DNA of 64,000 bases. It comes from Dehalococcoidia bacterium. GTDB taxonomy: Bacteria > Chloroflexota > Dehalococcoidia > Lucifugimonadales > Australimonadaceae. The position numbers and the translations under genes were made by a program. The notes beneath the pieces were generated by a model. The model was not told where the DNA came from, ran no database searches, and saw only the letters and a list, made by a program, of their open reading frames with translations. Below, piece by piece: positions 7,465 to 26,890 of the stretch. Position 1 is the first letter of the stretch; the number at the start of each line of letters is the position of its first letter. The stretch spans positions 73,244-137,243 of the forward strand of contig DAOUJX010000060.1 in the NCBI GenBank assembly GCA_034422075.1, in the 5' to 3' direction.

Positions 7465-9399
7465 ATGGCGTTGCGTAGGGGCGGGCCGTCGACCCAGGTC
7501 ACCGGGTTCGCGAGCGCGCTGATGCTCGCAGTGCTTACGCTAGGCGCATGCTCCGCGCCTGCGACCGACTCCACACCCTCACCGGATATCGAAGCGACCG
7601 TTCGCGCGGTCGTCGACGAGGCGCTGCGCAATCAGCCGACGCCTCCACCAGCTGCGCCTCTTCCGAACATCGAAGCCACGGTGCAGGCGCTCGTCGATGA
7701 AGCGCTGCGCAACCAGCCGATACCTACCCCTACGCCCACTGCCACGCCGACGCCGCGGCCAACACCAACGCCAACGCCGACTCCCTCACCGACGCCGACC
7801 CCAAGGCCGACAGCCGCAGCATCGCCAACCCCCACTCCGCCGGTCGACATCCCGACGACGGCGGCGAGGGTGCGGCCAAGCGTCGTCAAAGTCACCGTCT
7901 CTTCGCGCCGGGGGTCCGGCGTCATCGTGGAGGTAGGGCCCGGCGACGGGGCCTTCGTCGTGGTCAGCGAGCACGTCATCCTTGACAGCGACGACGTGAC
8001 CATCCGAGTCGGTGATGACACCGACTACGAAGGGTTGGTACTGGGCCGCAGCGTTGCTAAGGACCTGGGCCTGGTGTGGATATGCTGCTCCAAGGATTTC
8101 GTCGCCGTACCGCTCGCCGACATCGCCGCCCTGCAGTCCGGTGCCTCCCTGTTCGCGATGGGCTACCCGTTGGGGGTCAGCCAGGCGACCATTACGCGCG
8201 GCGTCGTCTCGCGCACCTTCTACGACGAAGCGGACGGCGTGACCTACGTTCAGACCGATGCGCCCATCAACCCGGGGAACAGCGGCGGCCCGCTCTTCAA
8301 CCTTGCAGGCGAAGTTGTCGGCGTCAACACTGCCGTCATTAGACGCTCGCGGTCGGGCATATCGGTAGAGGGCGTTGGCTTCGCCATATCGGCGGAGACG
8401 GTCGCGGAGGTGCTGCCGCAGCTGAGGGCCGGCAGGGCCCGCTCTGGCGCGGTCGGCCCGGTGCGCGGTGCGTTGTCGCATGCCGCGGATACGGTCAGCA
8501 GCCTTCCTTTGGGCTTCTGGGGCGCCGATGTGGGTATGGCGGCAACGTTCAGGAACCCGCACCTCCCGTCGGAGGGCGGCTGGGACTACGGTTTCCGGTT
8601 CCGCGCCCTTGGAACCGAAGGCGCGCATGTCGTCGGCGTCACTTCGGCCGGCCGCTGGTTCCACTACCTCGAGGAAGCCGGGGGAAGCCGCCGTCTGCTG
8701 GCCGAGGGAGCGGCGCCCGGGATCCGCCTCGGCACCGGCCTCGGAGGTGCGCTAGCCGCGAACAGGCTGTTCCTCGTCGCATCACGGCACCAGGGATGGC
8801 TGTTTGTCGATGAGGTGCTGATTGCCGAGCTCGACCTCAGCGAAGGCTCTCCAACCGGCAGCGTCAGCGCTCTCGTCGGATACCTACCGGAGAATCGCTC
8901 GGAGGGCAGCTCAACGTCGGTGCATGAATTCAGGGCCGCGCCTCCCAATACCCCCACCGCAGGGTCCGAGATCATCAATAGCGGCGGTGCGGCGTTCGGC
9001 GGCCGTGCAAGGGACCTCGTCGCCCGTGTCACGCTCATAACCCCCGACACCAGCGGCCCGTGGGACTATGGCTTTGAGCTAGGCACGACGCAGCGCTTCG
9101 TTGTTGGCAGCGACGGCACCTGGCTCCACCTCGCCAGGGAGAGCACGTTCCCTTGGCAGGTGGTCACTTCCGGGCGCGTGGAGTTCGACCGATCTGCAGG
9201 AACCACCAACCACCTGCTCTTGGCGGTCGTCGGCAATTCGGCCCAGGTCTACCTGAACGGGAAGGCCGTCGCGCGCGTCGACCTCGGCACGGGGGCTGGC
9301 ACCCGCACCGTGTTCGTACGTAGCGGGATGCTCCCGGAGACCGCGGCGGCGGACTACAGGATCCGCTACCGCGACTTCCAGGTCTGGCCGCTCGGGTAG
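7465..9399 (+). CDS. lipoprotein trypsin-like (S1/HtrA-type) serine protease with repeat/linker region and two C-terminal jelly-roll-like repeats
   Basis: Signal peptide with lipobox (LAVLTLGAC). 27-aa tandem repeat and a Pro/Thr linker. Protease core with GNSGGPLFN. Duplicated C-terminal ~130-aa module (GWDYGFRF.../PWDYGFEL...). Start re-set from 7297 to ATG 7465. Confidence 0.75.
7588..7725 (+). repeat. in-frame 81-bp tandem duplication (27 aa; IEATV[R/Q]A[V/L]VDEALRNQP) inside the protease gene
   Basis: Copy 1 starts at 7588 and copy 2 at 7669 (81-nt offset). The first ~54 nt of each are clearly similar at DNA and protein level. Confidence 0.8.
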
Positions 9400-11044: not shown

Positions 11045-11854
11045 TTGCCACCGCATATCGGTGTGCCTATGCCAGACCCGCGGCAGCCAATGATACTCAC
11101 AGTCGCCAACCAGAAGGGCGGCGTTGCCAAGACGACCACCTCCGTCAACCTCGCCGCCTGCTTTGCCGAGCAGGGCAAGCGCACCCTCCTTGTCGACATG
11201 GACCCGCAAGGCGGCGACGCCGTCTGCCTCGGCATGGACACGACTGTCCTCGAACGCTCCATCTACGACGCGCTCGTCAAGCCCGGCGTTACGGTGGGCG
11301 ACGTGCTGGTCAGTACCAACTTCGGCTTCGACCTCGCCCCCGCCAACATCGACCTGGCCGGCGCGGAGATCGAACTGAAGCAGGCGCTCGCCGCCGAGAC
11401 GGTACTCCAGCGCCGCCTTAGGCCGCTGCACGAACAGTACGACGTCATCGTCATCGACACGCCCCCTTCCCTTGGCATCCTCACCGTCAACAGCCTGACC
11501 GCCGCCACCGAGATACTCATTCCCATCGCCTGCGAATACATGGCGCTGCGGGGGCTGCGGATGCTGCTCGACACGGTCGAGAGCGTCAAAGAGGTGACCA
11601 ACCCCAACCTGCACATCCTCGGCATCCTCGCCACGCGCTACGACGCGAGGACGGTAAATGGGCGCGAGGTCTACCAGTACCTAGGTGAGTTTGCGGAACG
11701 CGAGGGGCTTCGGCTCTTCCCCTATGTCATCCGCCAGTCCGTGCGCTTCATCGAGGCGCCCGGCTACCAGACGCCGCTCGTGCTGTGGCGTCAGAACGTC
11801 GACGGCGCCAAGCAGTACCGAAACGTCGCTAGGGAGATCATCAATGGCTACTAA
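11045..11854 (+). CDS. parA: ParA/Soj-family partition ATPase
   Basis: Deviant Walker A NQKGGVAKTT, LLVDMDPQG and VIIDTPPS. Start uncertain: TTG 11045, ATG 11069 or ATG 11090. Confidence 0.85.
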   Translation: MPPHIGVPMPDPRQPMILTVANQKGGVAKTTTSVNLAACFAEQGKRTLLVDMDPQGGDAVCLGMDTTVLERSIYDALVKPGVTVGDVLVSTNFGFDLAPANIDLAGAEIELKQALAAETVLQRRLRPLHEQYDVIVIDTPPSLGILTVNSLTAATEILIPIACEYMALRGLRMLLDTVESVKEVTNPNLHILGILATRYDARTVNGREVYQYLGEFAEREGLRLFPYVIRQSVRFIEAPGYQTPLVLWRQNVDGAKQYRNVAREIINGY

Positions 11855-12203: not shown

Positions 12204-13084
12204 GACGTGCGCGGCGCGACGAACCCCGCCTTCCTGCGCCACTTGGGCGCGACCTTCACCCACAACTCCACGTACACCGGCCGTGCGAGCCGCTCCTCAA
12301 TGGCCGCCCGTGCCTCTACGCCCACTGTGCGCAGTGCCTGCCCGCCGCTCCCAATCAGCATCCGTTTCTGCGACTGCGCGTCAACGTAGATGACCGCGCG
12401 GACCAGGTCGCGCTCGTCCGCGCCGCGACGCACGTACTCCTCCACGTCCACCGCGACGTAGTAGGGAATCTCGTCGCGGTAGTGCTCAAAGACGCGCTCG
12501 CGGATGGCCTCGGCGATGAAGAATTCCTCCGGCCTGTCCGTCAGTGTCTCCGGCGCAAAGAGCGGCTCCTGCTCCGGCAGCGCGGCGGCCAGCTCGTCAG
12601 CCAAGGTGCCAACACCGTCGCCAGTGAGCGCGCTTAGCGGCACGATCTGCCGGAACGGGTGCGCTTCGGTGTAGGCCGCCATGATGGGCAGCAGCCGCGC
12701 CTTGGCCGTGGTGTCGACCTTGTTGAGCGCGAGCAGCGCCGGCGCGCGAGACTCGCGCAGCTGTTCCATGAACTGCCGCTCGACGTCGCCCGGCATGCGC
12801 GGCTCCGCGACGAGCACGGCAAGGTCAGCCTCGGCGAAGGCGGATGCCACCTGCCGCGCCATCGCCGCATCCAGCTCGTCTCGACCCTTGCGTAGGAAGC
12901 CCGGTGTGTCGAGCAGCGCGGCCTGAAAGCCCTCGCCGTGCAGCACGCCGAGCAGCTTGTGGCGCGTCGTGTGCGGCTTGGCGCTGACGATGGACAGCTT
13001 GTGTCCCACAAGCGCGTTCAGCAGCGACGACTTGCCCACGTTGGCGCGTCCGACGATGGCCACAAACCCGCTGCGAAAGGTCAT
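12200..13084 (-). CDS. era: GTPase Era
   Basis: GRANVGKSSLLN (G1), DTPG, NKVD, and a C-terminal KH-type region. Confidence 0.9.
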   Translation of the reverse strand: MTFRSGFVAIVGRANVGKSSLLNALVGHKLSIVSAKPHTTRHKLLGVLHGEGFQAALLDTPGFLRKGRDELDAAMARQVASAFAEADLAVLVAEPRMPGDVERQFMEQLRESRAPALLALNKVDTTAKARLLPIMAAYTEAHPFRQIVPLSALTGDGVGTLADELAAALPEQEPLFAPETLTDRPEEFFIAEAIRERVFEHYRDEIPYYVAVDVEEYVRRGADERDLVRAVIYVDAQSQKRMLIGSGGQALRTVGVEARAAIEERLARPVYVELWVKVAPKWRRKAGFVAPRTS

Positions 13085-13109
13085 GGGGCAATTATGGGGG
13101 ATGAGACGC

Positions 13110-13184
13110 TGGAGCGGGCGATGGGATTCGAACCCACGACAGCCTGCTTGGGAAGCAGGTACGCTACCACTGCGTCACGCCCGC
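13110..13184 (-). tRNA. tRNA-Gly (anticodon CCC)
   Basis: The reverse complement folds as a cloverleaf: GCGGGCG / ACGC-AGTGGTA-GCGT / CCTGC-TTCCCAA-GCAGG / GTGGG-TTCGAAT-CCCAT / CGCCCGC-T-CCA. 75 nt with encoded CCA. Confidence 0.9.
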
Positions 13185-13270
13185 ACCGCCGCCATTGTAG
13201 CCGCCGCTCTCCGACCCTGCCAGCCCGCGCGGTCGCCTGCGCGCCCATGCGGTAGACTAGTACGCACGCT

Positions 13271-14854
<1,584 letters not shown>

Positions 14855-14885
14855 GCGCGCGGGGCATTCTCAGCCCTCACCCCGG

Positions 14886-14909
14886 CCCTCTCCACCTCGT
14901 GGGAGAGGG
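14886..14909. terminator. hairpin between convergent cimA and FAD/Fe-S oxidoreductase genes
   Basis: CCCTCTCC (14886-14893), 8-nt loop, GGAGAGGG (14902-14909). No clear U-tract. Confidence 0.3.
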
Positions 14910-14916
14910 GACCTAC

Positions 14917-17847
14917 CTAATCCCGCAGCGCGTCGGCTAGGTATTCGGCCACGTGACGGGGGCGCTTGGAGGTGAAATGGCCGATCTGCTGGCGGCAGGA
15001 GATGCCGGAGACGGCTACGCGCCAGTCGCGCTTGTCGTCGGACTCGAGCGCGGGGAAGAGCTTGAACGCGCCCATCTGCTGCGATAGGTCGTAGTGCTCC
15101 TTCTCGAAGCCGAACGTGCCGGCCATCCCGCAGCAAGGCGAGTCGATAAGCTCCGCGGTGTAGCCGGGGACGGCATTCAGCGCAGACAGGGTCGGCGCGG
15201 CGCCGACGACAGCCTTTTGGTGGCAGTGGCCGTGGACCTGGATCGACGCCGATGCGCCGTCGGCGAATAAGGGCACGCCGTCGGCGTCCGCCGCCTCGTG
15301 ACGCTGCACCAGTTCGTCGAGCATCACCGCCTGGGATGCGACGACGGCGGCGGCCTCACTGCGCAGCAGGTCGGGGTACTCCTCTCGCAGAATGAGCAGG
15401 CACGAAGGCTCGGTACCGACGATCGGGACGCCCCGGTGCGCGTACGGCGCAAGCGCGGCGACGTTGGTCTCTGCCCAGCCCTTGGCCTTGGCGAGCAGCC
15501 CCTTGGAGATTGCGGGGCGTCCACAGCAACGACGCTGGCTTACGAGAGTGACCGAGTAGCCGAGCGCCTCCAGCACGCGCACCGCCGCCTGGCCGACCTC
15601 CGGGTGCATGTACTCGGTGAAGGTGTCGTTGAAGTAGACGGCCTCGCCGCGCGGCGCGTCCGCTCGAGTGCGGTGTCGCGCGAACCACGCGGAGAAGCGG
15701 CGTCGCGCGAAGCGGGGCAGCGGGCGCCGCCGCGAGACGCCGAGCATCCGCTCCACTAGCGCCCGCACGGGCGGCAGCGACGACAGCGCATTGGTAAGTG
15801 GCGCGAGCGCCTGCCCCGCGCGGCTGAGGCGAGCGATGTCGGCGAATGCGCGCACGCGCAGCGGGACGCGGCGCGTCTCCCAGCGCTTCGCCAGCACCTC
15901 CGCCTTGAGCTTGGCCATATCGACGTTGGAGGGACACTCCGCCTTGCACGCCTTGCACTCGACGCACAGGTCGAGCGCGGAATGGAGGCGGTCTCCCGTG
16001 AGGTCTTCAGCGGGAAGGCGTCCGGCCAAGACTGCGCGGAGCAGGTTTGCGCGGCCACGGGTCGAGTGCTCCTCCTCGCGCGTGACCATGAAGGAGGGGC
16101 ACATGCCGCCGTCGGTGCGCCGACACGCGCCCTGGCCGTTGCACAACTCGACGTGAGCGGCGAATCCCCCGTCCGTCGAGAAGTCCATGTAGGTGTCGAC
16201 CTCCATGTTGCGCGTCTCGGGACTGAGGCGCAGGTACTCGCGGATGCCGGGCGTCTCGATGATCTTGCCCGGGTTCATGATCCCATCGGGGTCGAACGCC
16301 TGCTTCAGCTCCCTAAAAGCGCCGTAGAGCTCAGGCCCGTACATCTTCTCCATGAACGCGCCGCGCACGATGCCGTCGCCATGCTCGCCGGAGAGAGAGC
16401 CCCCGAACTCGAGCACGAGGTCGGCCACCTCCGTAGCGATGCTCTCCAGCTTGTCGAGCCCCTCCTCCGTCTTGACGTTGACGATGGGGCGGATGTGCAG
16501 ACAGCCGGTGGAGGCGTGGCCGTAGTAGGCGGCCTCCGTGCCGTGGCGCCGGACGATCTCGTCGAAGCGCGCGACGTACTGGGGCAAGAGCTCGGGAGAG
16601 ACGGCGGTGTCCTCGACGTAGGGCAGCGGCTTGGCGTCTCCCTTGATGGCCATTGCAAGTCCGAGCCCCGCCTCGCGGAGCCCCCACATGTGCCGCTGCT
16701 GCGCGGGGTCGGAGGAGGTGACGATGGCGTAGCCGAGGCCGCGCCGTGTCAAGTCCTGCTTGACGCGCGCGAGCTTGGCGTCGATCTCCGCCAGCGTGTC
16801 GCCGTAGAACTCGATGAAGATGAGGTTCTGCGGCTCGCCCTCGACCCAGTCGAGGAGGTGGCGGAAGCCGGGGTTGATGCGGCAGTTGCGGATGATGAGC
16901 TCGCCTATCTGCTCCACGGCCGACGGCTCGTGCTCGAGTATCGCAACCGTCGCCTCCATCGCCTCGACGAGACCGTGGAAGTGGACGACGGCGGTGCCTC
17001 GCAGCTTGGGCACGGGCACGAGGCTCACCATGGCCTCGGTGACGACGGCGAGCGTCCCTTCCGATGCGCCGACCATGCGCGTGAGGTTCATGGGCGCATC
17101 ATTGACGAAGTCGTCGAGGTTGTAGCCGCTGACGCGCCGGAGGATCTTGGGGAAGCGCCGCTCCACGTCGTCACGGTGCTCGTAGGCGATGCGTCGCACC
17201 TCGCGGTAGACGCGGCCCTCAAGCGTGTCCTGCGACATCCGCCGCTCCAGCTCCGTGCCGCCTGCAGGGTCGAATCGCGCGCGGCTGCCGTCGGAGAGGA
17301 CGACCCTGACCTCGCGGATGTGGTCGAGCGTCTTGCCGTAGATGACGGAGTGCGCGCCGCACGAGTTGTTGCCGATACCACCGCCGACGGTGGCGCGTGC
17401 GCTGGTGACGGGGTCGGGCGCGTACATCAGGCCGTAGCGGCGCACGGCGGCGCTCAGGTGGTTGTTGACAATGCCCGGCTGCACGCGCGCCCAGCGCTCC
17501 TCCGGCTGCACCTCGAGCACCTGTCGCATGTACTTGGAGAAGTCAAGAACGAGCGCGTGGTTGGCAGTCTGGCCCGCGAGGCCGGTGCCGCCGCCGCGCG
17601 GAAGGACGGGAACGCCGTACTCGCGGGCGACCCGCACCGCCGCCTCGACGTCGTCCGCCGTCTGCGGCACGACGACGCCGACGGGCTCCATCTGGTACAT
17701 GGAGGCGTCGGTGGCGTAGAGCGCACGGTTGTAGCGGTCGACGCGGACGTCGCCGGCGACCTGGGGGCGCAGGCGCTCGGCGATCTCTTGCACATCTCGC
17801 TCCGGCAGCGTTGCCGCCTTGCGCGCACTCTCATACAACAACGGCAC
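14917..17847 (-). CDS. FAD-linked oxidase fused to Fe-S/CCG domains (GlcD-GlcF fusion, YdiJ-like)
   Basis: 976 aa. N-terminal FAD-binding PCMH-type domain (RGGGTGLAGQ), a central CxxCxxCxxxCP motif (CVECKACKAECP), and C-terminal CCG-type cysteine motifs (CCGRP, CCGMAG). Confidence 0.8.
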   Translation of the reverse strand: MPLLYESARKAATLPERDVQEIAERLRPQVAGDVRVDRYNRALYATDASMYQMEPVGVVVPQTADDVEAAVRVAREYGVPVLPRGGGTGLAGQTANHALVLDFSKYMRQVLEVQPEERWARVQPGIVNNHLSAAVRRYGLMYAPDPVTSARATVGGGIGNNSCGAHSVIYGKTLDHIREVRVVLSDGSRARFDPAGGTELERRMSQDTLEGRVYREVRRIAYEHRDDVERRFPKILRRVSGYNLDDFVNDAPMNLTRMVGASEGTLAVVTEAMVSLVPVPKLRGTAVVHFHGLVEAMEATVAILEHEPSAVEQIGELIIRNCRINPGFRHLLDWVEGEPQNLIFIEFYGDTLAEIDAKLARVKQDLTRRGLGYAIVTSSDPAQQRHMWGLREAGLGLAMAIKGDAKPLPYVEDTAVSPELLPQYVARFDEIVRRHGTEAAYYGHASTGCLHIRPIVNVKTEEGLDKLESIATEVADLVLEFGGSLSGEHGDGIVRGAFMEKMYGPELYGAFRELKQAFDPDGIMNPGKIIETPGIREYLRLSPETRNMEVDTYMDFSTDGGFAAHVELCNGQGACRRTDGGMCPSFMVTREEEHSTRGRANLLRAVLAGRLPAEDLTGDRLHSALDLCVECKACKAECPSNVDMAKLKAEVLAKRWETRRVPLRVRAFADIARLSRAGQALAPLTNALSSLPPVRALVERMLGVSRRRPLPRFARRRFSAWFARHRTRADAPRGEAVYFNDTFTEYMHPEVGQAAVRVLEALGYSVTLVSQRRCCGRPAISKGLLAKAKGWAETNVAALAPYAHRGVPIVGTEPSCLLILREEYPDLLRSEAAAVVASQAVMLDELVQRHEAADADGVPLFADGASASIQVHGHCHQKAVVGAAPTLSALNAVPGYTAELIDSPCCGMAGTFGFEKEHYDLSQQMGAFKLFPALESDDKRDWRVAVSGISCRQQIGHFTSKRPRHVAEYLADALRD

Positions 17848-17970
17848 CGGCGCTTACCTCCCTAGACGCGTGAGGGGGATTGTAGCGGATGGGGAGGGAG
17901 AGGCCCCACCCCCGACGATCTAACCCCTTGCGGCGATCCACATACGCGGGCTTAGCGCTACTCTATAGCC

Positions 17971-18594
17971 ATGTCTGACCAGTGCTCCCTCCTTCCCGAT
18001 GCACCCGACGGCACGCAGCAAGCGCCAGTGGCGGGCCTGCACTACCGGCCTTCCTTTCTCTCACCTGATGAGGAGGCTGCGTACATCAGACGCATCGACG
18101 CGAGCGAGGATGCGTGGCTCACCGACCTCAGCCGCCGCGTGCAACACTACGGCTGGCGGTACCACTATGCCCAGCGCACCATCACTGCCGACTTGCGTAT
18201 CGGCCCTTTGCCCGACTGGCTGCAGATGCTCGCTCAGCGCCTCTACGAGGAGACCGGCCTCTTCGAGCGTCCCCCCGAGCAGGTCATCGTCAACGAGTAC
18301 GAGCCAGGCCAGGGCATCGCTTTGCATACCGACCACCCGGGTTTTGGTCCAGCCGTCGCGACGATCTCGCTCGGCGACGAGTGGGAGATGGGCTTCTCGC
18401 GCCGTATCGGCAAGGACGAGGTGAAGGCGCGAAAGATGCTGGCGCGCGGTTCGGCCCTCATCCTGACGGGTGAGGCGCGGCGGCACTGGCGGCACGGCAT
18501 CGCCAAGCGCGCCACGGAGGGTGGCCGCCGCGGGCGCAAGCGCAGGCGGCGCCTGTCCCTCACCTTTCGCACGGTCATCCAACCGCTCTCCTAA
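17971..18594 (+). CDS. 2OG-Fe(II) oxygenase, AlkB-like
   Basis: VIVNEYEPGQGIALHTDH (HxD iron ligands), ...HGI..., and C-terminal RLSLTFR (2OG-binding Arg region). Confidence 0.7.
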   Translation: MSDQCSLLPDAPDGTQQAPVAGLHYRPSFLSPDEEAAYIRRIDASEDAWLTDLSRRVQHYGWRYHYAQRTITADLRIGPLPDWLQMLAQRLYEETGLFERPPEQVIVNEYEPGQGIALHTDHPGFGPAVATISLGDEWEMGFSRRIGKDEVKARKMLARGSALILTGEARRHWRHGIAKRATEGGRRGRKRRRRLSLTFRTVIQPLS

Positions 18595-18622
18595 CGCATT
18601 GCCGTGATGCTACCCTGTAGCG

Positions 18623-19966
18623 GTGTTTGAGACGCTGACCGATAAGCTCACGTCCGTCTTCACGCGCCTTGGCAATAAGGGGCGGCTGGGCGAGGCGGAC
18701 GTCGATGAGGCGCTGCGCGAGGTTCGGCTCGCGCTCCTTGAGGCCGACGTCAACTTCCGCGTCGCGCGCGAGGTCATCGAGCGCATCCGCGCCCAAGCCA
18801 CCGGCGAGGCGCTGCTGCGCGGCATCTCGCCCGGCCAGCAAGTCGTCAAGATCGTCCATGAGGCGCTCGTGGAGTTGCTCGGCGGCGAGAACCGCGACCT
18901 CGCGCCCATGTCGTCATCCAAGCCCAACGTCCTGATGCTCATCGGCCTGCAGGGGTCGGGGAAGACGACGACTGCGGCCAAACTCGCGCTGAACCTGCGC
19001 CGCCGCCAGCAGCGCGCGCTGCTCGTTGCAGCCGACCTGCGCCGCCCCGCCGCAATCGACCAGCTGGAAACGCTGGGCAAGCAGTTGGACGTGCCGGTCT
19101 ACCGCGAGAACGCCGCGCCCGACCAGGCGACGCGCGTCGCCGCCAACGGTCTGAAGCAAGCCGAGCGCATGGGCATGGCGTGGGCCATCGTCGACACCGG
19201 CGGGCGTCTCCATGCGGACGACGACCTGATGGCAGAGCTGGAGGAGATGAAGCGCCGCCTCGACCCTGCCGAGGTGCTGCTGGTCGTCGACGCGATGACG
19301 GGGCAGGACGCCGTGAACGCTGCGGAGGAGTTTCACGGGCGTATAGGGCTGACGGGCCTCATCCTCTCGAAGCTCGACGGCGATGCACGCGGGGGCGCTG
19401 CGCTCACGGTGGCGCACGTCACGGGCGTGCCCGTCAAGTTCGCTGGCACCGGCGAGAAGGCAGACGCGCTCGAGGCGTTCCACCCCGAGCGGATGGCATC
19501 GCGCATCCTGGGTATGGGCGACGTGGTAACCCTGGTCGAGCGCGTGCAGGAGCAGGTGAGCGCGGAGCAGGCGATGGAGCTGGAGCGCAAGGTGCGCCGC
19601 GCCCAATTCGACCTGGACGATTTCCTTCAGCAGCTGCGGCAGATACAGAACATGGGCTCGCTCGCGTCGCTGATGCAGATGGTGCCCGGATTCCGCGCGC
19701 TATCCTCGCGGATGTCGCCGGACGCCCTGGACGACGGGCGGCTCAAGCGTCTTGAGGCCATCATCTCGTCTATGACGCTTTGGGAGCGCCGCCACCCCGA
19801 CCAGTTGACGGGGAGCCGGCGCCGACGGGTTGCAGCCGGCTCCGGCACGACCCCTGCAGACGTCAATCAGCTGCTGGGACAGTTCAAGCAGATGCAAAAA
19901 GTGATGAAGCGCCTATCGTCCGGCAAGGTGCGCAGCCTCAGCGGGCTGGGCCTGGCGGGGGTGTAG
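18623..19966 (+). CDS. ffh: signal recognition particle protein Ffh
   Basis: GLQGSGKTTTAAKLA, DTGGR, SKLDGDARGGAAL, and a Met-rich M domain (MGSLASLMQMVPG). GTG start at 18623. Confidence 0.95.
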   Translation: MFETLTDKLTSVFTRLGNKGRLGEADVDEALREVRLALLEADVNFRVAREVIERIRAQATGEALLRGISPGQQVVKIVHEALVELLGGENRDLAPMSSSKPNVLMLIGLQGSGKTTTAAKLALNLRRRQQRALLVAADLRRPAAIDQLETLGKQLDVPVYRENAAPDQATRVAANGLKQAERMGMAWAIVDTGGRLHADDDLMAELEEMKRRLDPAEVLLVVDAMTGQDAVNAAEEFHGRIGLTGLILSKLDGDARGGAALTVAHVTGVPVKFAGTGEKADALEAFHPERMASRILGMGDVVTLVERVQEQVSAEQAMELERKVRRAQFDLDDFLQQLRQIQNMGSLASLMQMVPGFRALSSRMSPDALDDGRLKRLEAIISSMTLWERRHPDQLTGSRRRRVAAGSGTTPADVNQLLGQFKQMQKVMKRLSSGKVRSLSGLGLAGV

Positions 19967-19970
19967 CGAG
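19927..19970 (+). repeat. direct repeat copy 1 (attL-like), containing the functional ffh stop codon
   Basis: GGTGCGCAGCCTCAGCGGGCTGGGCCTG[G]CGGGGGTGTAGCGAG recurs at 20850-20893 with a single difference (G at 19955 versus C at 20878). Confidence 0.9.
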
Positions 19971-20050
19971 AGCTAGGGGTAGCCTGCGGCACCGGGCGAA
20001 GCTAATGGCGAGTCCCGCCCTCAAGGGTTAAGCTGCAAAGGACTGGACTG

Positions 20051-20812
20051 TCAGCGGGGCTGGTTCACCGAAAAGCAAGGGCGACATTGTGGCCTCCGAT
20101 AAGTCACCGCCCGAGGCTTGCCACACCGATGGCACTTCTTCTCTCGATAGTCCTGATTGGCATACTGGGCCCATTGCGGGTAGCAATTAAGGCATAGAGG
20201 CCGCTCAGGGTTCAGTTCGATTACTCCACCACAGCGAATACAGTGACCGGTGCCATTTGCGAGGGTATTGGCGGCGACAGCGGCTACTTCCTGGGTTAGT
20301 TTCCGAACTCCTTGCACAAGCTGATCTCGAGCCTTGGGCTTGGCTAGTACCCTGCCCCTGCCCAAGAGCCTAGTCTTCACGTAGTCCCGAACATGTTTCT
20401 GTTCGGGGATATCCAAATCAAAGGCGACCTCGTAGGAGTTCTTGGTGGAAAACTCGGTAAGGTTCATCGACCCCACCAACACACGGAACTCATTCAGGTA
20501 GGCCTTGGCGTGCAGGCCCTCCACAGCGACGACTTCGAAATCGTTATTCCGTAACCATCGTACTGCTTTGCCTCCTGTAATCTCGTTTTCATCCCGTGTT
20601 ATGACGCTGACAACGACTCCACGCTTAACGGCGTCTCGGAGTTCGTCCTGAAGGTGGCGCCACAAGTCCAGGTAAGGGGAGACTAGGGTGACTTGTTTTC
20701 GGGCATCGCGAACCAACTCGACAATCTGGTTGGCGATTTCTCCGTCTTGATGGAATCGGGGCATTTGGCGAAAACCATATCGTCGCCCTAGCGTGTTGAC
20801 AACGACAAGCAT
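20051..20812 (-). CDS. HKD (phospholipase-D family) nuclease-like domain fused to two C-terminal CxxC-x12-CxxC zinc ribbons
   Basis: HKD-like motif LHAKAYLNEFRVLVGSMNLT. C-terminal CIRC-x12-CLNC and CHRC-x12-CRPC. The likely true start is ATG 20764 (MPRFHQDG...), just downstream of the internal promoter. The maximal ORF starts at 20812. Confidence 0.7.
   Translation of the reverse strand: MLVVVNTLGRRYGFRQMPRFHQDGEIANQIVELVRDARKQVTLVSPYLDLWRHLQDELRDAVKRGVVVSVITRDENEITGGKAVRWLRNNDFEVVAVEGLHAKAYLNEFRVLVGSMNLTEFSTKNSYEVAFDLDIPEQKHVRDYVKTRLLGRGRVLAKPKARDQLVQGVRKLTQEVAAVAANTLANGTGHCIRCGGVIELNPERPLCLNCYPQWAQYANQDYREKKCHRCGKPRAVTYRRPQCRPCFSVNQPR
20774..20802 (-). promoter_or_regulatory. sigma70-like promoter of the HKD-nuclease gene
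   Basis: On the minus strand: TTGTCA (20802-20797), 17-nt spacer, TATGGT (20779-20774), then 9 nt to ATG 20764. This implies a leaderless or very short-leader mRNA. Confidence 0.5.
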
Positions 20813-20849
20813 CCGGCCACGCTCGGGCGCCCTGCCCCAATGAGAGCAC

Positions 20850-20893
20850 GGTGCGCAGCCTCAGCGGGCTGGGCCTGCCGGGGGTGTAGCGAG
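20850..20893 (+). repeat. direct repeat copy 2 (attR-like), a displaced duplicate of the ffh 3' end
   Basis: 43/44 identical to 19927-19970. It would encode ...LSGLGLPGV* if joined to ffh. Confidence 0.9.
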
Positions 20894-20924
20894 CGCAGCG
20901 CTACGTGGGCGGATGCCAAGAGTA

Positions 20925-20949
20925 GGGGCGGGCCGTAGCGGCCCGCCCC
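20925..20949. terminator. strong GC hairpin, a likely bidirectional terminator (native ffh terminator / Rieske oxygenase terminator)
   Basis: GGGGCGGGCCG-TAG-CGGCCCGCCCC (11-bp stem, 3-nt loop), followed by ACACTTTCG on the plus strand. Confidence 0.6.
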
Positions 20950-20975
20950 ACACTTTCGTCAAGAGATGCCGGCTC

Positions 20976-22340
20976 CTACCCGGCGGGGACGGTTTCGTCC
21001 TCGCGCTCAGAGGCAGGAGTGGACTTGGCTGCGCCATTCGACACGGCGCCGTTGGACTTCCCGCCCTGCAGCTTCCTGAAAAGTTCGGTGAGGGAGACCA
21101 TCGACATCGGCACCTCGTCCGCAGGCACGTTGTCGGGGTTGCGGAACCTGAAGGGCGCCTCGCGGCCGCCGAAGTGGCGCGTCACCACGAGCCGGCGCCA
21201 CTGCACGACCTCGGAGTCGGTGACGGACAGCGCCTCGGGCGCGCTGTAGCTCTGGTTGAGCATGACGCTGTTGTCCTGCATCGAGAAGTTCTGCTCGATG
21301 ATCCAGCGGTGGTAGGTGTAGTAGAGGAAGGTCTGCCACCAGCGCTGGATGCGGTTCTTGGGGTAGGTGCAGTGGTAGTAGAAGAGGCGCGTCTTGTTCT
21401 CCGCCACCGCCACGCACATGCGCGTGTAGAGGTCGTAGGCGAACTCGGTGCGGAACATGCCGGGCAGGTGGTGTCCGCCGCACCAGCGGGCGGTGCGCGG
21501 CGAGGGAACGTTGGCCTGCGCGCCCCTGACGTTCCACTTGAGCGCCCATGTCCAGAAGCGGCGCTTGCGGCTCTTGGGCCACTTAAAGCCCAGGCCGGGG
21601 TAGGTGTCTTGGATGGTGTTCTTATCGCCCCGCGCCATCATCCGAGAGGCCGTCACCTCGCCGCCGAAGCCGTTACCGACGAAGACGGGCGATTCGCCCT
21701 GGGCTCCGCGCGGCATGTACTCGCCCCGCAGCACGACCAGCGCGTTGCGGTGCAGGTAGTTGACGTGCGAGTCCATCGAGTTCTCCAGCGCAACCTCCCA
21801 GTTGCAGTCCCAGTAGGTGACACCGAAGGTGAGGAGCGCGTCCTTGTCGAAGAACTCCTCCGGCACGTCGTCCTCAATGGGGGCGGGCGCCTCGTTGCCG
21901 ACCCAGACGAACACCATTCCCTTAAGGGTCTGCGTCGGGTACTTGGTGGCTGCTGTGCCCGGCTTGCCGCAAATGGCGGCGTCGGGACCCTCCGACAGTA
22001 CAGCGACGTTGACGCCGTCGCCGTCAAACGTCCAGCCGTGGTAGGGGCAGGACACGTAGCCGGGCCAGTGGACGTCTCCCTCCGACAGCCGCGCACCGCG
22101 GTGCGGGCAGATGTCAGTTAGCGCGACGACCTCTCCCGCCTTGTCTCGGAAGACGACCAGATCGTCGCCGAGGAGCGAGATGCGGATGGCACGGCGCTTG
22201 GGGACGCGCTTGTCTTGGACGAGGGGGTACCAGTAGTTGCGCAGGCCCATCTTGGGGATGAGGTGCCGGATGTCTCCGCTGAGCGACGGCACCTTGCCGT
22301 TGGAGTCCTGCTCGGTGTCAGGTGTGGAGTTTACGACCAT
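20976..22340 (-). CDS. Rieske [2Fe-2S] non-heme-iron oxygenase, alpha-subunit-like
   Basis: CPHRGARL...CPYHGWTF Rieske motif. Mononuclear-iron motif NWEVALENSMDSHVNYLH. Start re-set to ATG 22340 (MVVNSTP), preceded by GGAGG. The tracked ORF extends to 22550. Confidence 0.8.
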   Translation of the reverse strand: MVVNSTPDTEQDSNGKVPSLSGDIRHLIPKMGLRNYWYPLVQDKRVPKRRAIRISLLGDDLVVFRDKAGEVVALTDICPHRGARLSEGDVHWPGYVSCPYHGWTFDGDGVNVAVLSEGPDAAICGKPGTAATKYPTQTLKGMVFVWVGNEAPAPIEDDVPEEFFDKDALLTFGVTYWDCNWEVALENSMDSHVNYLHRNALVVLRGEYMPRGAQGESPVFVGNGFGGEVTASRMMARGDKNTIQDTYPGLGFKWPKSRKRRFWTWALKWNVRGAQANVPSPRTARWCGGHHLPGMFRTEFAYDLYTRMCVAVAENKTRLFYYHCTYPKNRIQRWWQTFLYYTYHRWIIEQNFSMQDNSVMLNQSYSAPEALSVTDSEVVQWRRLVVTRHFGGREAPFRFRNPDNVPADEVPMSMVSLTELFRKLQGGKSNGAVSNGAAKSTPASEREDETVPAG

Positions 22341-22443
22341 AATGGCCTCCCGTACGAATGCTCTTCGTAAGTAACGGAGCATAGGGAAGCAGGAAGCGCG
22401 TGTCAAACCGCTGGTGCTACACTGATGATGTAGTCGAGGGAGG

Positions 22444-23709
22444 ATGATGAGCACGACAGACACGCGTAGCGCACTCGCCACACTAGACCCGCAGCTCGCC
22501 GACGCCATCGACCGAGAGGTCGAGCGGCAGCGGCGCAACATCGTCCTCATTGCCTCCGAAAACTACGTCAGCCGCGCCATTCTCGAGGCGCAGGGCTCCG
22601 CGCTGACCAACAAGTACGCCGAGGGCTATCCGGGCCGCCGCTACTACGGTGGCTGCGAGTACGTGGATGTAGCGGAGCAACTGGCTATCGACCGCGCGTG
22701 CGATCTCTTCGGCGCGGAGCATGCGAACGTTCAACCGCACGCCGGGGCCCCGGCCAACATGGCCGCCTACGCCGCCCTGCTGGAGCCGGGCGACACCGTT
22801 ATGGGCCTCCAGCTCGACCAGGGCGGCCACCTCACCCACGGCAGCCCCGTCAACTTCTCCAGCAAGATCTACCGCTTCGTCTCCTACGCGCTCGACCCCG
22901 AGACGGAGCAGCTGGACTACGACGTCATCGTGCGCGCAGCGCGAGAGCACCGTCCCAAGGTCATCGTCGCGGGCTATACCGCCTACTCGCGCACAATCGA
23001 CTTCGCTCGGTTCGGCCAGATAGCCGAGGACGTAGGCGCGGTGTTAATGGTGGACATGGCGCACATAGCTGGACTCATCGCGGGGGGCGCACACCCCTCG
23101 CCCGTGCCGTACGCCGGCGTCGTCACATCGACCACGCACAAGACGCTGCGCGGGCCGCGCGGAGCGCTCATCCTGAGCCAAGAGGCGTATCGCCGCAACA
23201 TCGACAGGGCCGTCTTCCCCTATGGACAGGGGGGGCCGCTGATGCACACCATTGCCGCCAAGGCCGTCTGTTTCGCCGAAGCGAGCACGCCGTCCTTCTC
23301 CGACTACGCCCATCAGGTGGTGCGCAACGCCAAGGCGATGGCGGAGGAGCTGGAGGCGGGAGGCTTGCGCATCGTCTCAGGCGGGACGGACAACCACCTG
23401 ATGCTGGTCGACCTGCGCCCGCTGGAGACGACGGGCCAGGAGGCCGAGGAGGCGTTGGGGCGCGTGAACATCACGGTGAACAAGAACGCCATCCCCAACG
23501 ACCCGCAGCCGCCGCGCGTCACCAGTGGCCTGCGCCTAGGCTCGCCCGCCATAACGAGCCGGGGCTTCGGCATGGAGGAATCGAAGCGGGTAGCGGCGCT
23601 GATCGTGCGAGCGCTCAACTATCGCGGCGATGAGCGCGTGGAAGCGGAGGTGCGCGACGCAGTCGCCGAACTGACTTCGCAGCACCCCGTCCCGGGCCTC
23701 GACTACTAG
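22444..23709 (+). CDS. glyA: serine hydroxymethyltransferase
   Basis: [18 protein letters not shown] (PLP lysine). 421 aa. Confidence 0.95.
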
Positions 23710-23725
23710 GGGCGCGCCCCGTCTC

Positions 23726-24583
23726 CTACGTCTGGAAGAACTCGAGGCAGACCCGGTCGAATTCCTCGCGGTACTCGACCTGCGCCCAGTGGCCACACTT
23801 GGAGATGACGTAGAGGCGAGCGTTCTGGAAGCGCTTGAGCATCAGCAGGCCCACCTCCAGCGCACCGCCCTTGTCCTCCTGCCCCCAGACAAGAAGCGTG
23901 GGAGCGGCATTCTGCTCGAGGAAGGGGTAGTAGTCGATGCGGTGCTGCTTGGCGCGGCGCGCAGCTTGCTCCAATGCCACAGGGTCTGTGGCGGCGTCGA
24001 ACCGCTCCTGGATGACGTCAGGGGTGAGTAGGCTGGAGTCGTAGACGAGGCTCTTTGCCAGGCGCTCCATCTTCTCGATGGTCGGGCCCTCTCCCTGGTA
24101 GAACTTGACGATGTTGTCCAGCGCCTCCTGAGGCGTGGGCTGGAAGAAGACGACGTTCGTGGGCTGAGAGCCGATCATGACCAGATGCTTGATGCGGTGG
24201 GGGTAGTGGACGGCAAGGCCGAGGCCGGCTTGCCCGCCCATGGAGTTGCCAATGATGTCGGCGCTCTCGATGCCGAGCGCCTCCATGAAGTCGTTGATAA
24301 CCTTGCCAATCCAGCCGATCCATTCGTGCTCGAGGGCTTCGTCCGGGTACTCGGAGCGCCCCCAGCCAGGCATGTCGAACATGATCATGCGGTTGTTGAG
24401 GGCGAGGTCCTGGATGTTGCCCTTGAAGTTGCTCCACGCGGTTGCGCCGGGGCCGCCGCCGTGAATGCAGATGATGGGATCGCCGGTGCCTACCTCGTTG
24501 TAGTGGATGCGGATGCCGCCGGCGACAACCTCCTTGCTGGTTGATTCGTCCGTGACTGCCTGAAGCTCCTGAACGGTAGCCAT
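23726..24583 (-). CDS. alpha/beta hydrolase (meta-cleavage-product hydrolase-like)
   Basis: HGGGPG oxyanion region, GNSMGG nucleophile elbow, C-terminal CGHWAQ. Confidence 0.8.
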   Translation of the reverse strand: MATVQELQAVTDESTSKEVVAGGIRIHYNEVGTGDPIICIHGGGPGATAWSNFKGNIQDLALNNRMIMFDMPGWGRSEYPDEALEHEWIGWIGKVINDFMEALGIESADIIGNSMGGQAGLGLAVHYPHRIKHLVMIGSQPTNVVFFQPTPQEALDNIVKFYQGEGPTIEKMERLAKSLVYDSSLLTPDVIQERFDAATDPVALEQAARRAKQHRIDYYPFLEQNAAPTLLVWGQEDKGGALEVGLLMLKRFQNARLYVISKCGHWAQVEYREEFDRVCLEFFQT

Positions 24584-24739
24584 TTGGTCGCCTCCTCCGA
24601 TAGAGCGTTGCGTCGCGCAGGATAGGCGCGGGTGCGCACGTGGTCAATCGGGGGTAAGTGCCCCGCCGGATTTTGCGGCGCGCGTCGGATTTGCGGTAAC
24701 CTAGAAGCAGCGGCGCGATGAGCGTCCCTGCGTGGAACG

Positions 24740-26596
24740 ATGGAAAACAACCGGCGTATCGGCAACACCTTCATCTACCTCATCATCGGCGTGGCAGTCA
24801 TCGCCATCCTGTTCACGCTGTTCACCTCCGGCGACAACGCGCAAGAGGTCAGCCTCACGCAGGTGCTGAGCATGGCCAAGAACCGCCAGATTGACCGCAT
24901 CACGGTCGACGGCGACCGCCTCCTCATCACGCAGGCCAACGCGCCCAATCAGCCGCTCGTCGCCACCAAGGAGCCCGGCACCAGCGTCTTTGCGCTGTTA
25001 GAGGCAGAGGGCATAAAGCCGGCCGAGTTGGGCATCCAGGTCGACGTAAAGAAGTCGAGCGGTCTCGGCAACTTCTTCGGCATCCTCATCCAGTTCCTGC
25101 CGCTCATCTTCTTCGGCGCCATCTTGCTGTTCATGATGCGTCAGGCGCAGGGGACGAACAATCAGGCGATGGGCTTCGGGCGCAGCCGCGCGCGGTTGCT
25201 CACCGCCAACCGGCCTACCGTCAACTTCGCTGACGTGGCTGGCGTCGAGGAGTCGAAGGCGGAGCTAGAGGAGATTGTCGAGTTCCTGAAGTTCCCCGAG
25301 CGCTTCCTGGCCCTGGGCGCGCACATCCCCAAGGGCGTGCTGATGGTCGGCCCGCCCGGCACGGGCAAGACGCTGCTCAGCCGCGCCGTCGCGGGGGAGG
25401 CAGGCGTGCCCTTCTTCTCCATCTCCGGCTCCGAGTTCGTCGAGATGTTCGTGGGCGTGGGCGCATCGAGGGTGCGCGACCTGTTCGACCAAGCCAAGCG
25501 CAACGCCCCAGCCATCGTGTTCGTCGACGAGATCGACGCCGTGGGACGGCACCGGGGCGCGGGGCTCGGCGGCGGCCACGACGAGCGCGAGCAGACGCTC
25601 AACCAGATCCTCGTCGAGATGGACGGCTTCGACACGGGGACGAACGTCATCGTCATCGCGGCAACCAACCGCCCCGATATCCTCGACCCCGCTTTGCTGC
25701 GCCCCGGCCGCTTCGACCGGCGCGTGGTGCTCGACCTGCCCGACATTCACGGCAGGGTCGCGATTCTGAACGTCCACGCGAAGGGCAAGCCCCTTGGCGC
25801 GGACTTCGACGTAGAGGCGATTGCGCGCGCAACGCCCGGATTCAGCGGCGCCGATCTCGAGAACCTGGTGAACGAGGCGGCGATACTGGCAGCGCGACGC
25901 TCCAAGAAGGCCATCGAATACGATGAGTTCGCCGAGGCGGTCGACCGCGTCATCATGGGCCCCGAGCGGCGCTCGCGCGTCATCTCGCACAAGGAGAAGG
26001 AGATCGTCGCCTACCACGAGGGCGGCCACGCGCTCGTCGGCCACGTACTTCCATACGCCGACCCCGTGCAGAAGATCACCATCGTCTCGCGCGGCATGGC
26101 GGCGGGCTACACGCGCTCCGTGCCGGAAGAGGACCGCATCTTCCTTTCGCGCGCGCAGTTCATGGACCGCATGGCGATGGCCCTGGGCGGACGCGTGGCT
26201 GAGGAGTTGGCGTTCGGCGAGGTGACCACCGGTGCAGGCAACGACCAGGAGCAGGTGACGCAGATGGCGCGCGCAATGGTCACGCGCTACGGCATGAGCA
26301 GCAAGCTCGGCCCGCGCACCTTCGGCAAGAAGGAGGAGCTGGTCTTCCTAGGCCGAGAGATTTCGGAGCAGCGCGACTACTCCGAGCGCGTGGCGCAAGA
26401 GATCGACGACGAAGTACAGGGGATAATCCTGCAGGCGTACACTCACGCGAGACAGGTGCTCTCAGACCACTACGCCAAGCTTGTGCAGATCGCGCGCTAC
26501 CTGATGAAGAACGAGACGGTGGAGGGCGATTCGCTGCGTGAGCTGTTCAACTCGGAGGCGCCTCCCGTCGAGGGCGCGCCCGTGGCCGCCGGCTAA
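24740..26596 (+). CDS. ftsH: ATP-dependent zinc metalloprotease FtsH
   Basis: N-terminal TM helix, AAA+ [15 protein letters not shown], and zinc motif HEGGHAL. Confidence 0.95.
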
Positions 26597-26602
26597 CGGA
26601 GC

Positions 26603-26890
26603 CTACGAGCCGCCTGCGCCACCGTTGGCCGACTCACCCTCGTCCCCCTCGTCGAGCGGGAGTTCGCGGTAATAGATGCCCCACTTCTGCATCATGGCGG
26701 CGATCCGCGGGTCGTCTAGCGACGTGACCTCGCGCAGGAAGCCGGCGAGCGCATGCGCGTGCAGCTGTTCCGGCGCCGCGACCCAGGAGCCTTCGCTGGG
26801 GACGGCATAGAGCAGGCCCGCCTGGTTCTGCGAACGAATCTCGACGCGCGTCCCTCCCGAATCGTGCGTCACCGTGATGCCGTAGGCCAT
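26603..26890 (-). CDS. hypothetical protein (95 aa, acidic/Gly-rich tail)
   Basis: ORF fills the gap between ftsH and the JAMM gene. No family recognised. Coding status rests only on ORF and context. Confidence 0.4.
   Translation of the reverse strand: MAYGITVTHDSGGTRVEIRSQNQAGLLYAVPSEGSWVAAPEQLHAHALAGFLREVTSLDDPRIAAMMQKWGIYYRELPLDEGDEGESANGGAGGS

Follow-up and report, generated by a model that had tools for sequence, protein, structure and literature searches.

A one-gene insertion with target duplication at the ffh stop codon of a Dehalococcoidia genome encodes a predicted single-HKD PLD nuclease with a tandem zinc module

Restriction genes can enter bacterial genomes in a way that leaves a long stretch of the target on both sides of the new unit. 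In the sections of the work of the Kobayashi group drawn on here (PMC2853133), this "insertion with long target duplication" is reported with restriction genes of all four types (I to IV) and is defined by long, variable and imperfect direct repeats, a single copy of the repeat in the related empty site, and the lack of any other mobile-element gene. The repeats in the table rows of that paper measure 238–423 bp at 93–98% identity, with a minimum criterion of 30 bp, and the same sections propose double-strand breakage, which is common to restriction enzymes, as the basis of the insertion and state that amplification can occur through the long repeats on either side of a unit. Several nucleases with a phospholipase D (PLD) domain are also close to the gene described here: BfiI dimers have one active site, which is metal independent (PMC2853115), the Type IV enzyme SauUSI contains a PLD nuclease domain (PMC3141236), and a stand-alone N-terminal PLD domain is joined to a variable C-terminal sensor in the END nucleases, which constitute a single-gene defence (PMC12191111). 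A zinc-module variant is not listed among the END-type nucleases in the latter paper. Here, we describe a gene, termed PLD-Zn, at the 3′ end of ffh in a 64,000-nt stretch of DNA from a Dehalococcoidia bacterium (Chloroflexota; assembly GCA_034422075.1, contig DAOUJX010000060.1, positions 73,244 to 137,243, forward strand). This whole stretch is called the window, and positions without another label refer to it. Taking the whole chain of evidence together, we put the chances at somewhat better than even that PLD-Zn is a stand-alone restriction-like and/or selfish PLD endonuclease that was inserted by long target duplication.

The target of the insertion is ffh, which encodes the SRP54-type signal recognition particle GTPase (18623–19966, plus strand; Pfam SRP54, SRP_SPB, and SRP54_N). 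Two copies of a 51-nt direct repeat (repeat family D1), which are 94% identical with three mismatches, lie at a spacing of 923 nt, and a 28-nt exact core of this repeat occurs twice in the window, with 0 occurrences expected. The left copy (19923–19973) is the functional 3′ end of ffh and encodes ...GKVRSLSGLGLAGV* plus 7 nt; the last 14 codons and the stop codon fall within it, and ffh is intact. The right copy (20846–20896) is a displaced, nonfunctional duplicate of the ffh 3′ end and is followed by the native downstream DNA. An Ffh scan of species-representative genomes retrieved the complete chromosome of a Dehalococcoidia metagenome-assembled genome (MAG; L010), the Ffh of which is 97% identical to that of the window, ending in ...LPGV* there and in ...LAGV* in the window. 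Positions 12623–19969 are collinear with L010 12–7347 at 95.4% identity, and positions 20846–26889 are collinear with L010 7301–13341 at 96.7% identity. L010 7301–7347 aligns to both 19923–19969 and 20846–20892, showing that the repeat is present there in a single copy and that L010 carries a clean empty site. The 923-nt insertion consists of 872 nt of unique DNA and one repeat copy, placed exactly at the ffh stop codon. Both repeat copies in the window share four lineage-specific bases against L010, and at the mismatched positions, the native base is found in the left copy at position 4 and in the right copy at position 33.

The unique segment holds the PLD-Zn open reading frame (ORF) alone, with no methyltransferase, integrase, or other gene, which argues that PLD-Zn is not the cargo of a larger island. 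A preliminary description of the window, made without database searches, had called it a cargo gene; this label is withdrawn, as PLD-Zn is the sole gene of the 923-nt insertion and not part of a larger element. The same description had proposed a self-contained unit on foreign DNA without a methyltransferase, and here the data agree: the guanine-plus-cytosine (GC) content of the insert is 0.53–0.57, against 0.67–0.70 in the flanks, a foreign-looking composition, and the dip lies between the repeat copies. That description did not include the bracketing 51-nt target duplication, nor did it mention that a relative has the empty site or that the family is large and recurrently mobile as a single gene. 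A PLD-Zn gene was found at the ffh 3′ end in 0 of the 80 ffh loci fetched. Because these loci are unoccupied and the insert is low in GC, the insertion was a gain in the window lineage. A 77-nt noncoding tail of the insert (19974–20050, minus strand) separates the stop codon of the nuclease gene from the left repeat and has no counterpart in the empty site; its predicted RNA fold was not significant (z = +0.9), and no Rfam match was obtained.

The surroundings of the insert in the window contain a gene for a 2OG-Fe(II) oxygenase of the AlkB-like superfamily on one flank (17971–18594, plus strand) and a gene for a Rieske-type ring-hydroxylating oxygenase on the other (20976–22550, minus strand). 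Both are present and collinear in the empty-site genome. No drm or dpd partner genes were found nearby in the window. A separate PLD-Zn copy, 36% identical and independent, was observed in another Dehalococcoidia MAG (DAOUKL010000008.1; L012:9274–10047) whose Ffh is 70% identical. This copy also shows a GC dip (0.56–0.60 against 0.68–0.72) and lies approximately 2 kb downstream of ffh without bracketing repeats; its closeness to ffh may reflect chance or a regional hot spot.

The maximal ORF of the PLD-Zn protein (20051–20812, minus strand; from the ORF list) comprises 253 aa and, as initially described, holds one HKD motif and four CxxC pairs. The true start is likely ATG 20764, in agreement with the preliminary description, giving a protein of 237 aa, because homologues begin at approximately residues 13–17 of the maximal ORF in the family alignments. 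A sigma-70-like promoter match, TTGTCA-17-TATGGT (20774–20802, minus strand), is located 9 nt upstream of this ATG. It is a consensus match only, agreeing at 9 of 12 positions, and is the sole such match in 19900–21000, where 0.3 would be expected by chance. The site and position given in the preliminary description therefore hold, although the term "near-consensus" used for it was generous. The AlphaFold2 model of the protein is confident, with a mean pLDDT score (predicted local distance difference test) of 81.9, and no membrane segment was predicted in it.

The N-terminal half of the protein contains a PLD-fold nuclease domain (20342–20755, minus strand; approximately aa 20–157), supported by Pfam PLDc_2 (E = 1.8e-10, aa 31–134) and Foldseek. 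The catalytic motif LHAKAYLNEFRVLVGSMNLT (aa 100–119; 20456–20515, minus strand) reads H101-A-K103-AYLN-E108 ... G-S115-M-N117, which fits HxK(x)4D/E ... (G/S)SxN, and a conserved E128 follows just downstream. Among 47 family sequences, H101, K103, and N117 are invariant, and S115 and E128 are nearly so. In the profile alignment, E108 sits at the D position of the Zucchini HHKFAIVD...SLN...RE motif; variation between D and E at this HKD position is known in PLD3/4, according to the part of PMC10690185 drawn on here. Both the AlphaFold2 model and the Foldseek results show the PLD alpha/beta fold, with Nuc as the best match (1byr, E = 1.6e-10, template modeling score normalized to the target 0.76), followed by NucT (6ehi, 1.6e-8), Zucchini (4ggj, 8.6e-8), BfiI (2c1l, 8.8e-7), and the PLD domain of SauUSI. 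When the family profile was compared with solved structures, the matches included Zucchini/MitoPLD (9.6e-6), NucT (2.8e-4), Nuc, and BfiI.

Each chain has one HKD motif, and the motif and the model mark the N-terminal half as a PLD nuclease domain of the single-HKD kind (Nuc/NucT/Zucchini/BfiI type) in which the catalytic residues are intact. By analogy with Nuc and BfiI, two chains should dimerize into one metal-independent active site. The best matches in the PADLOC and NCBIfam libraries were domain-level ones to DrmC (6.8e-11) and DpdK (3.4e-7), and NucT was matched too. The NCBIfam scores were 28.1 bits for DrmC (cutoff 133) and 26.2 bits for DpdK (cutoff 100), and no curated restriction or defence model in the two libraries was matched above its cutoff. 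These results bear out two points of the preliminary description, namely that the protein resembles Nuc/BfiI-type nucleases with a single HKD motif rather than lipid enzymes with two, for which the Foldseek and hidden Markov model matches speak, and that it could not be assigned to a described defence system.

The C-terminal region (20054–20254, minus strand; aa 187–253, 67 aa) forms a separate tandem zinc module of two CxxC-x12-CxxC units, as predicted from conserved cysteines and a domain model. The four pairs (C191/194, C207/210, C227/230, and C243/246) are invariant or nearly so. In a separate, confident model of the module (pLDDT 88.7), each unit folds into a beta-hairpin with a helix after it. 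The presence of such a Cys4 × 2 module had been recognized from the start, but its description as a pair of topoisomerase-like zinc ribbons was not supported: the domain did not match PF01396 (zf-C4_Topoisom) in hmmscan even at E ≤ 10, and the Foldseek comparison of the model with the Protein Data Bank (PDB) returned no fold match, topoisomerase ribbons included, with a best E value of 6.2. Weak hmmscan matches to DZR_2, NMD3, and DUF7685, generic models of the double-zinc-ribbon kind, were all below cutoffs, and the spacing of the units weakly resembles that of ribosomal protein S14 (E about 0.05). The module arose by tandem duplication of one unit, which is visible at the DNA level as repeat D18 in L012. 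Four family members of 313–377 aa (P0015, P0020, P0041, and P0055) have six to eight CxxC pairs, equal to three or four zinc units, and judging from these sequences, the module appears to expand by unit duplication.

To describe the family, profile searches and metagenome scans were combined. A word-indexed search gave 14 homologues (≤45% identity), as if the family were rare; this impression was overturned by an exhaustive profile search, in which 928 cluster representatives (50% identity clusters) were matched at E ≤ 1e-30. The 150 family matches listed are nearly full length and mostly 200–300 aa, and the HKD motif and the four CxxC pairs are conserved in most of them. The GC content of the hosts ranges from ~27% to 70%, and archaeal marker genes were present among the neighbours. 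For back-translated scans, alignment A1 was used, as the broad alignment A3 was too divergent; the metagenome scan yielded 80 loci with full-length relatives. Among the 86 proteins encoded within two genes on either side of the family members, no conserved partner gene was found, and no methyltransferase family was present among the 25 Pfam families listed as the most frequent in this set.

Phage, plasmid, and viral-contig collections contain relatives that have the PLD domain only, namely Nuc-like plasmid genes and Vibrio phage genes, and a phage or plasmid origin of PLD-Zn is not supported. The PLD-only relatives were observed in many Vibrio phages of inovirus size (H1–H7, such as vB_Vipa26; approximately 10 kb) and in the viral contigs L092–L144. 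The Vibrio phage protein lacks the zinc module, is 26–27% identical over residues 16–141, and is annotated as a "DNA repair protein".

A different arrangement was seen in two contigs (L002 and L004), where a syntenic clade shows the order Lactamase_B, PLD-Zn, and adh_short at host-like GC. A GC-rich 51-nt direct repeat, 76–80% identical, is present at L002:9550–9600 and 11452–11502 and at L004:5410–5460 and 7286–7336. It lies within both flanking coding genes, is conserved between the contigs, and may be compositional. Variable defence-type genes were located a few kb from these copies (L002:5173–6951, L002:18629–20376, and L004:839–3069), including GmrSD, AAA_15 plus DUF4276, an N6_N4 methyltransferase, and a BrnT toxin, with the immediate neighbours remaining constant.

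Signs of mobility were then assessed across the family. The median GC content of the PLD-Zn gene was 4.4 points under that of its flanks, compared with +0.2 for control ORFs of similar size in the same loci (Mann–Whitney p = 5e-9); the gene was >5 points below its flanks in 20 of 44 loci and >5 points above them in none of the 44. Five loci (L201, L207, L230, L233, and L241) carry one lineage of the gene, with 85–92% DNA identity and approximately 33% GC, in unrelated flanks of 35–52% GC, and their similarity ends within tens of nucleotides of the ORF. Between L201 and L207, the similarity spans 973–1907, which is approximately the segment between the bracketing repeats of L201 (971–1915). The dN/dS values (ratios of nonsynonymous to synonymous substitution rates) were 0.02–0.44 in 16 pairs, showing purifying selection and suggesting that the protein was kept functional while spreading.

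Tight bracketing was defined as direct repeats at E ≤ 1e-5 with gaps of ≤250 nt to the gene on both sides. By this definition, repeats were detected in 5 of 73 loci besides the window, compared with 1 of 929 control windows (Fisher p = 1e-5). A loose test, accepting direct repeats within 1 kb, had a background of 1.7% of controls at E ≤ 1e-7 and was replaced by the tight criterion. The repeats in the five loci (L180, L187, L201, L206, and L220) are 39–539 nt long and 77–94% identical and enclose units of 898–1481 nt; the longest, in L201, is a 539-nt duplication with 92% identity. In L220, the duplicated target is intergenic DNA after ilvD. No tRNA or known RNA genes were found at the duplicated targets, and two tRNA genes are present elsewhere in L223. 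The edges of the six repeat-bracketed units, the window included, are ragged; searches of the unit ends for terminal motifs, terminal inverted repeats, and structured RNA found none, and no end motif is common to the six. Three further cases were discounted as bracketed: L218 carries a tandem low-complexity array, the repeats of L002 and L004 lie inside the flanking coding genes, and that of L210 is 528 nt from the gene. The copy in L238, which has a GC content of 0.30 in surroundings of 0.45–0.49, is bracketed by 41-nt inverted repeats at 7868–7914 and 8695–8735, with a third copy downstream at 9169–9209. These are built of ACGC(A/G)GAT units and may be host sequences similar to repetitive extragenic palindromes (REP-like) or the inverted-repeat form reported for some restriction genes.

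The exact PLD-Zn protein of the window was found in one other assembly only, the Logan contig L001 (SRR13587046_296580), whose 953 nt correspond to 19941–20893 of the window. The ends of this contig overlap by exactly 30 nt (k − 1, with k = 31), giving a 923-nt cycle equal to the repeat spacing. Its repeat is a hybrid, in which the right-repeat variant (C at the position of 19955, where the left copy of the chromosome has G) is joined to the left end of the insert; the junction expected of a circle or a tandem array is the right repeat joined to AGAGCTAGGGG, and this hybrid junction is absent from the chromosome of the window. The contig fits equally well an excised circle, tandem amplification of the unit, or a strain variant with C at 19955 in the left repeat. 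It was not accepted as proof of an excised circle, as a de Bruijn graph gives the same contig in all three cases, and an exact-Ffh look-up made to tell them apart returned nothing. Circles and tandem amplification are both predicted by the life-cycle idea of Kobayashi, as set out in the sections of PMC2853133 used here.

In the explanation that we favour, PLD-Zn acts as a restriction-like and/or selfish endonuclease. Two chains would come together, each contributing its single HxK motif to a common metal-independent active site; nucleic acid would be cut via a covalent phospho-histidine intermediate, and the substrate would be held or selected by the two zinc units that each chain carries. The 923 nt of foreign DNA entered at the ffh stop codon with duplication of the 51-nt target, leaving ffh intact. 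Because no methyltransferase accompanies the gene and the host tolerates it, host DNA would most likely be spared either by the enzyme needing a feature that the host lacks, such as modified bases or a certain DNA form (as for SauUSI or the END nucleases), or, alternatively, by the enzyme being inactive until triggered. In this way, a one-gene unit that is selfish and/or defensive would be maintained and would spread.

Several observations weigh against this explanation. Bracketing repeats are lacking in 92% of the loci. Housekeeping genes, among them archaeal Nop and OapC, make up most of the neighbours, and only approximately 10% of the neighbour genes are of defence or mobile type (ThsB-TIR, an SLFN-type helicase, McrBC, RmrA, and DUF3987), so that an enrichment in defence islands is not borne out. 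The phage, plasmid, and viral-contig collections yielded no full-length member. In one clade (P0008, P0009, P0011, P0013, and P0014), GC is host-like and synteny is conserved, which gives the gene a resident appearance. Both the nuclease and the defence activity are predicted. Zinc modules are not known to read modified DNA. The substrate could also be RNA, as RNA is cut by Zucchini, one of the closest PLD relatives.

Two other accounts take the repeats as products of recombination. In one, the unit is an integrative element that lacks autonomy, or what deletion has left of one (CIME-like, resembling a cis-mobilizable element), an integrase acts in trans, the repeats are the attachment sites attL and attR, and the nuclease is passive cargo. 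The choice of target agrees with this, as insertion into the 3′ end of a conserved essential gene with the coding end rebuilt is typical for integrases; moreover, the mismatch pattern at positions 4 and 33 fits hybrid sites, and the L001 cycle with its hybrid repeat could be an excised circle. However, the 872-nt unique segment contains no recombinase gene, the edges of the units are ragged without a conserved core or end motif, and the four lineage-specific bases in both repeat copies are as expected from duplication of the lineage's own sequence. Six independent one-gene units with repeats of 39–539 nt at unrelated, non-tRNA targets speak against it as well, and because all six hold only the PLD-Zn gene, repeated deletions to exactly one gene are unlikely. 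We therefore regard an integrase-dependent element as unlikely. In the other account, the PLD-Zn protein would itself insert and excise its gene as a PLD-family strand-transferase working via phospho-histidine, by cut-and-rejoin or by widely staggered target nicks, and the unit would be an autonomous mobile element of one gene and less than 1 kb. A solo repeat-bracketed gene in six unrelated hosts with no other mobility gene, together with the L001 cycle, would suit such an enzyme; BfiI performs transesterification (PMC2475615), and a poxvirus PLD-family "nicking-joining enzyme" is among the weak PDB matches (30ie_B, E = 0.076). Nevertheless, the ragged edges without conserved terminal sequences, duplication lengths that vary more than 10-fold, and the lack of repeats in most loci all count against it, and the same pattern occurs with unrelated nuclease folds in the cases covered by the sections of PMC2853133 cited above, pointing to breakage and host repair and not to a dedicated recombinase. 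Self-mobilization in either of these two forms is accordingly very doubtful in our judgment; if it were true, a PLD-family enzyme would join the transposase and recombinase classes, and insertion with long target duplication would be explained.

A further pair of accounts concerns the activity of the protein. PLD-Zn could be an ordinary cellular nuclease for the processing or repair of RNA or single-stranded DNA that is often transferred and is neither defensive nor selfish. The largely housekeeping neighbourhood, the syntenic clade with host-like GC, the presence of the RNA nuclease Zucchini among the closest solved relatives, and the weakly S14-like spacing of the zinc units (E about 0.05) are consistent with such a function. 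Set against these are the patchy distribution, including absence from the relative with 97% identical Ffh, gene GC systematically below that of the flanks, occurrence as a single gene in unrelated contexts, and bracketing target duplications that are typical of restriction genes. In line with this, the homologues are not uniformly core-genome genes devoid of mobile or defence associations, an outcome that the preliminary description had named as contrary to its proposal, and we consider a housekeeping role rather improbable. To a lipid-metabolizing PLD enzyme of the cardiolipin or phosphatidylserine synthase type we give almost no credence. One homologue bears the JGI label "phosphatidylserine/.../cardiolipin synthase-like enzyme", and there is a partial N-terminal match of ~50 residues to phosphatidylserine synthase 3hsi (E = 3.4e-5), but the protein has a single HKD motif in ~140 aa instead of two, every one of the best matches by fold and by profile is a nuclease, NCBIfam ClsB and Pss score 14–19 bits against cutoffs of 281–314, and the model has no membrane segment. 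The profile searches, which had been proposed at the outset as a check on this point, thus did not place the protein in a lipid PLD or cardiolipin-synthase family, and the proposed Foldseek/AlphaFold check gave the PLD fold with Nuc 1byr as the best match and no PDB match for the zinc module.

For the restriction-like and/or selfish endonuclease that we favour, the locus is of interest in two respects. A class of single-gene defence enzymes is emerging in which a stand-alone PLD nuclease carries a swappable C-terminal sensor, and this family would add a very small version (~237 aa) to it. What is new is the zinc C-terminal module on a stand-alone PLD nuclease; the insertion mode is already known from restriction genes. 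The unit in the window is minimal: its single gene lies in 872 nt of unique DNA, the duplication measures 51 nt, the essential target gene was left intact, and a relative with 97% identical Ffh has the empty site. A sub-kb unit with a defined empty site would be a tractable test substrate for the mechanism, including the role of the nuclease.

Nuc (pKM101 / Salmonella), NucT (H. pylori), and Zucchini/MitoPLD are the closest in fold and motif and are single-HKD, dimeric, and metal independent, but they are proteins of ~150–200 aa that have no C-terminal zinc module; Nuc and NucT are nonspecific and either secreted or periplasmic, and Zucchini is a eukaryotic mitochondrial RNA nuclease. DrmC (DISARM) and DpdK (Dpd) are PLD components of multigene defence systems and also lack the zinc module. 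In our literature search, the coverage of which was incomplete, no paper on a PLD-plus-zinc fusion or on a PLD-family recombinase was found. BfiI and the NgoAVII-type Type IIS enzymes share with PLD-Zn the N-terminal single-HKD PLD domain and a separate C-terminal module. However, the C-domain of BfiI is a B3-like pseudobarrel and that of PLD-Zn consists of tandem Cys4 zinc units, a cognate methyltransferase accompanies BfiI whereas PLD-Zn has none and is neighboured by ffh and the Rieske oxygenase, and the identity is ~19%. SauUSI and the END nucleases are similar in being single genes with a PLD N-domain and no methyltransferase that are not detected by PADLOC. Their sensors differ: SauUSI has a helicase and a reader of 5-methylcytosine, END nucleases have an inactivated EndoIII/OGG-like domain, and PLD-Zn has the zinc module in a much smaller protein (237 aa).

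With respect to insertion, the locus can be set beside the criteria of Furuta et al. (2010). The related genome L010 has a single repeat copy in its empty site; the duplication, at 51 nt, is longer than 30 bp; the insert, with 872 nt and one ORF, is below 20 kb and has no mobile-element gene; and as for homology to a restriction (R) gene, the candidate restriction enzyme PLD-Zn has the fold seen in the BfiI and SauUSI nuclease domains, with no modification methyltransferase (M) gene beside it. Like the restriction-gene insertions in the published sections considered here, which include Type IV cases without a methyltransferase, the window unit is small, consists of a nuclease gene between imperfect repeats, and has no integrase or transposase. 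It differs from them in having one gene in less than 1 kb and a Dehalococcoidia (Chloroflexota) host, as most of those published cases have both R and M genes, and in its repeat, which is 51 nt long at 94% identity (39–539 nt at 77–94% in its relatives), in comparison with the tabulated 238–423 bp at 93–98%.

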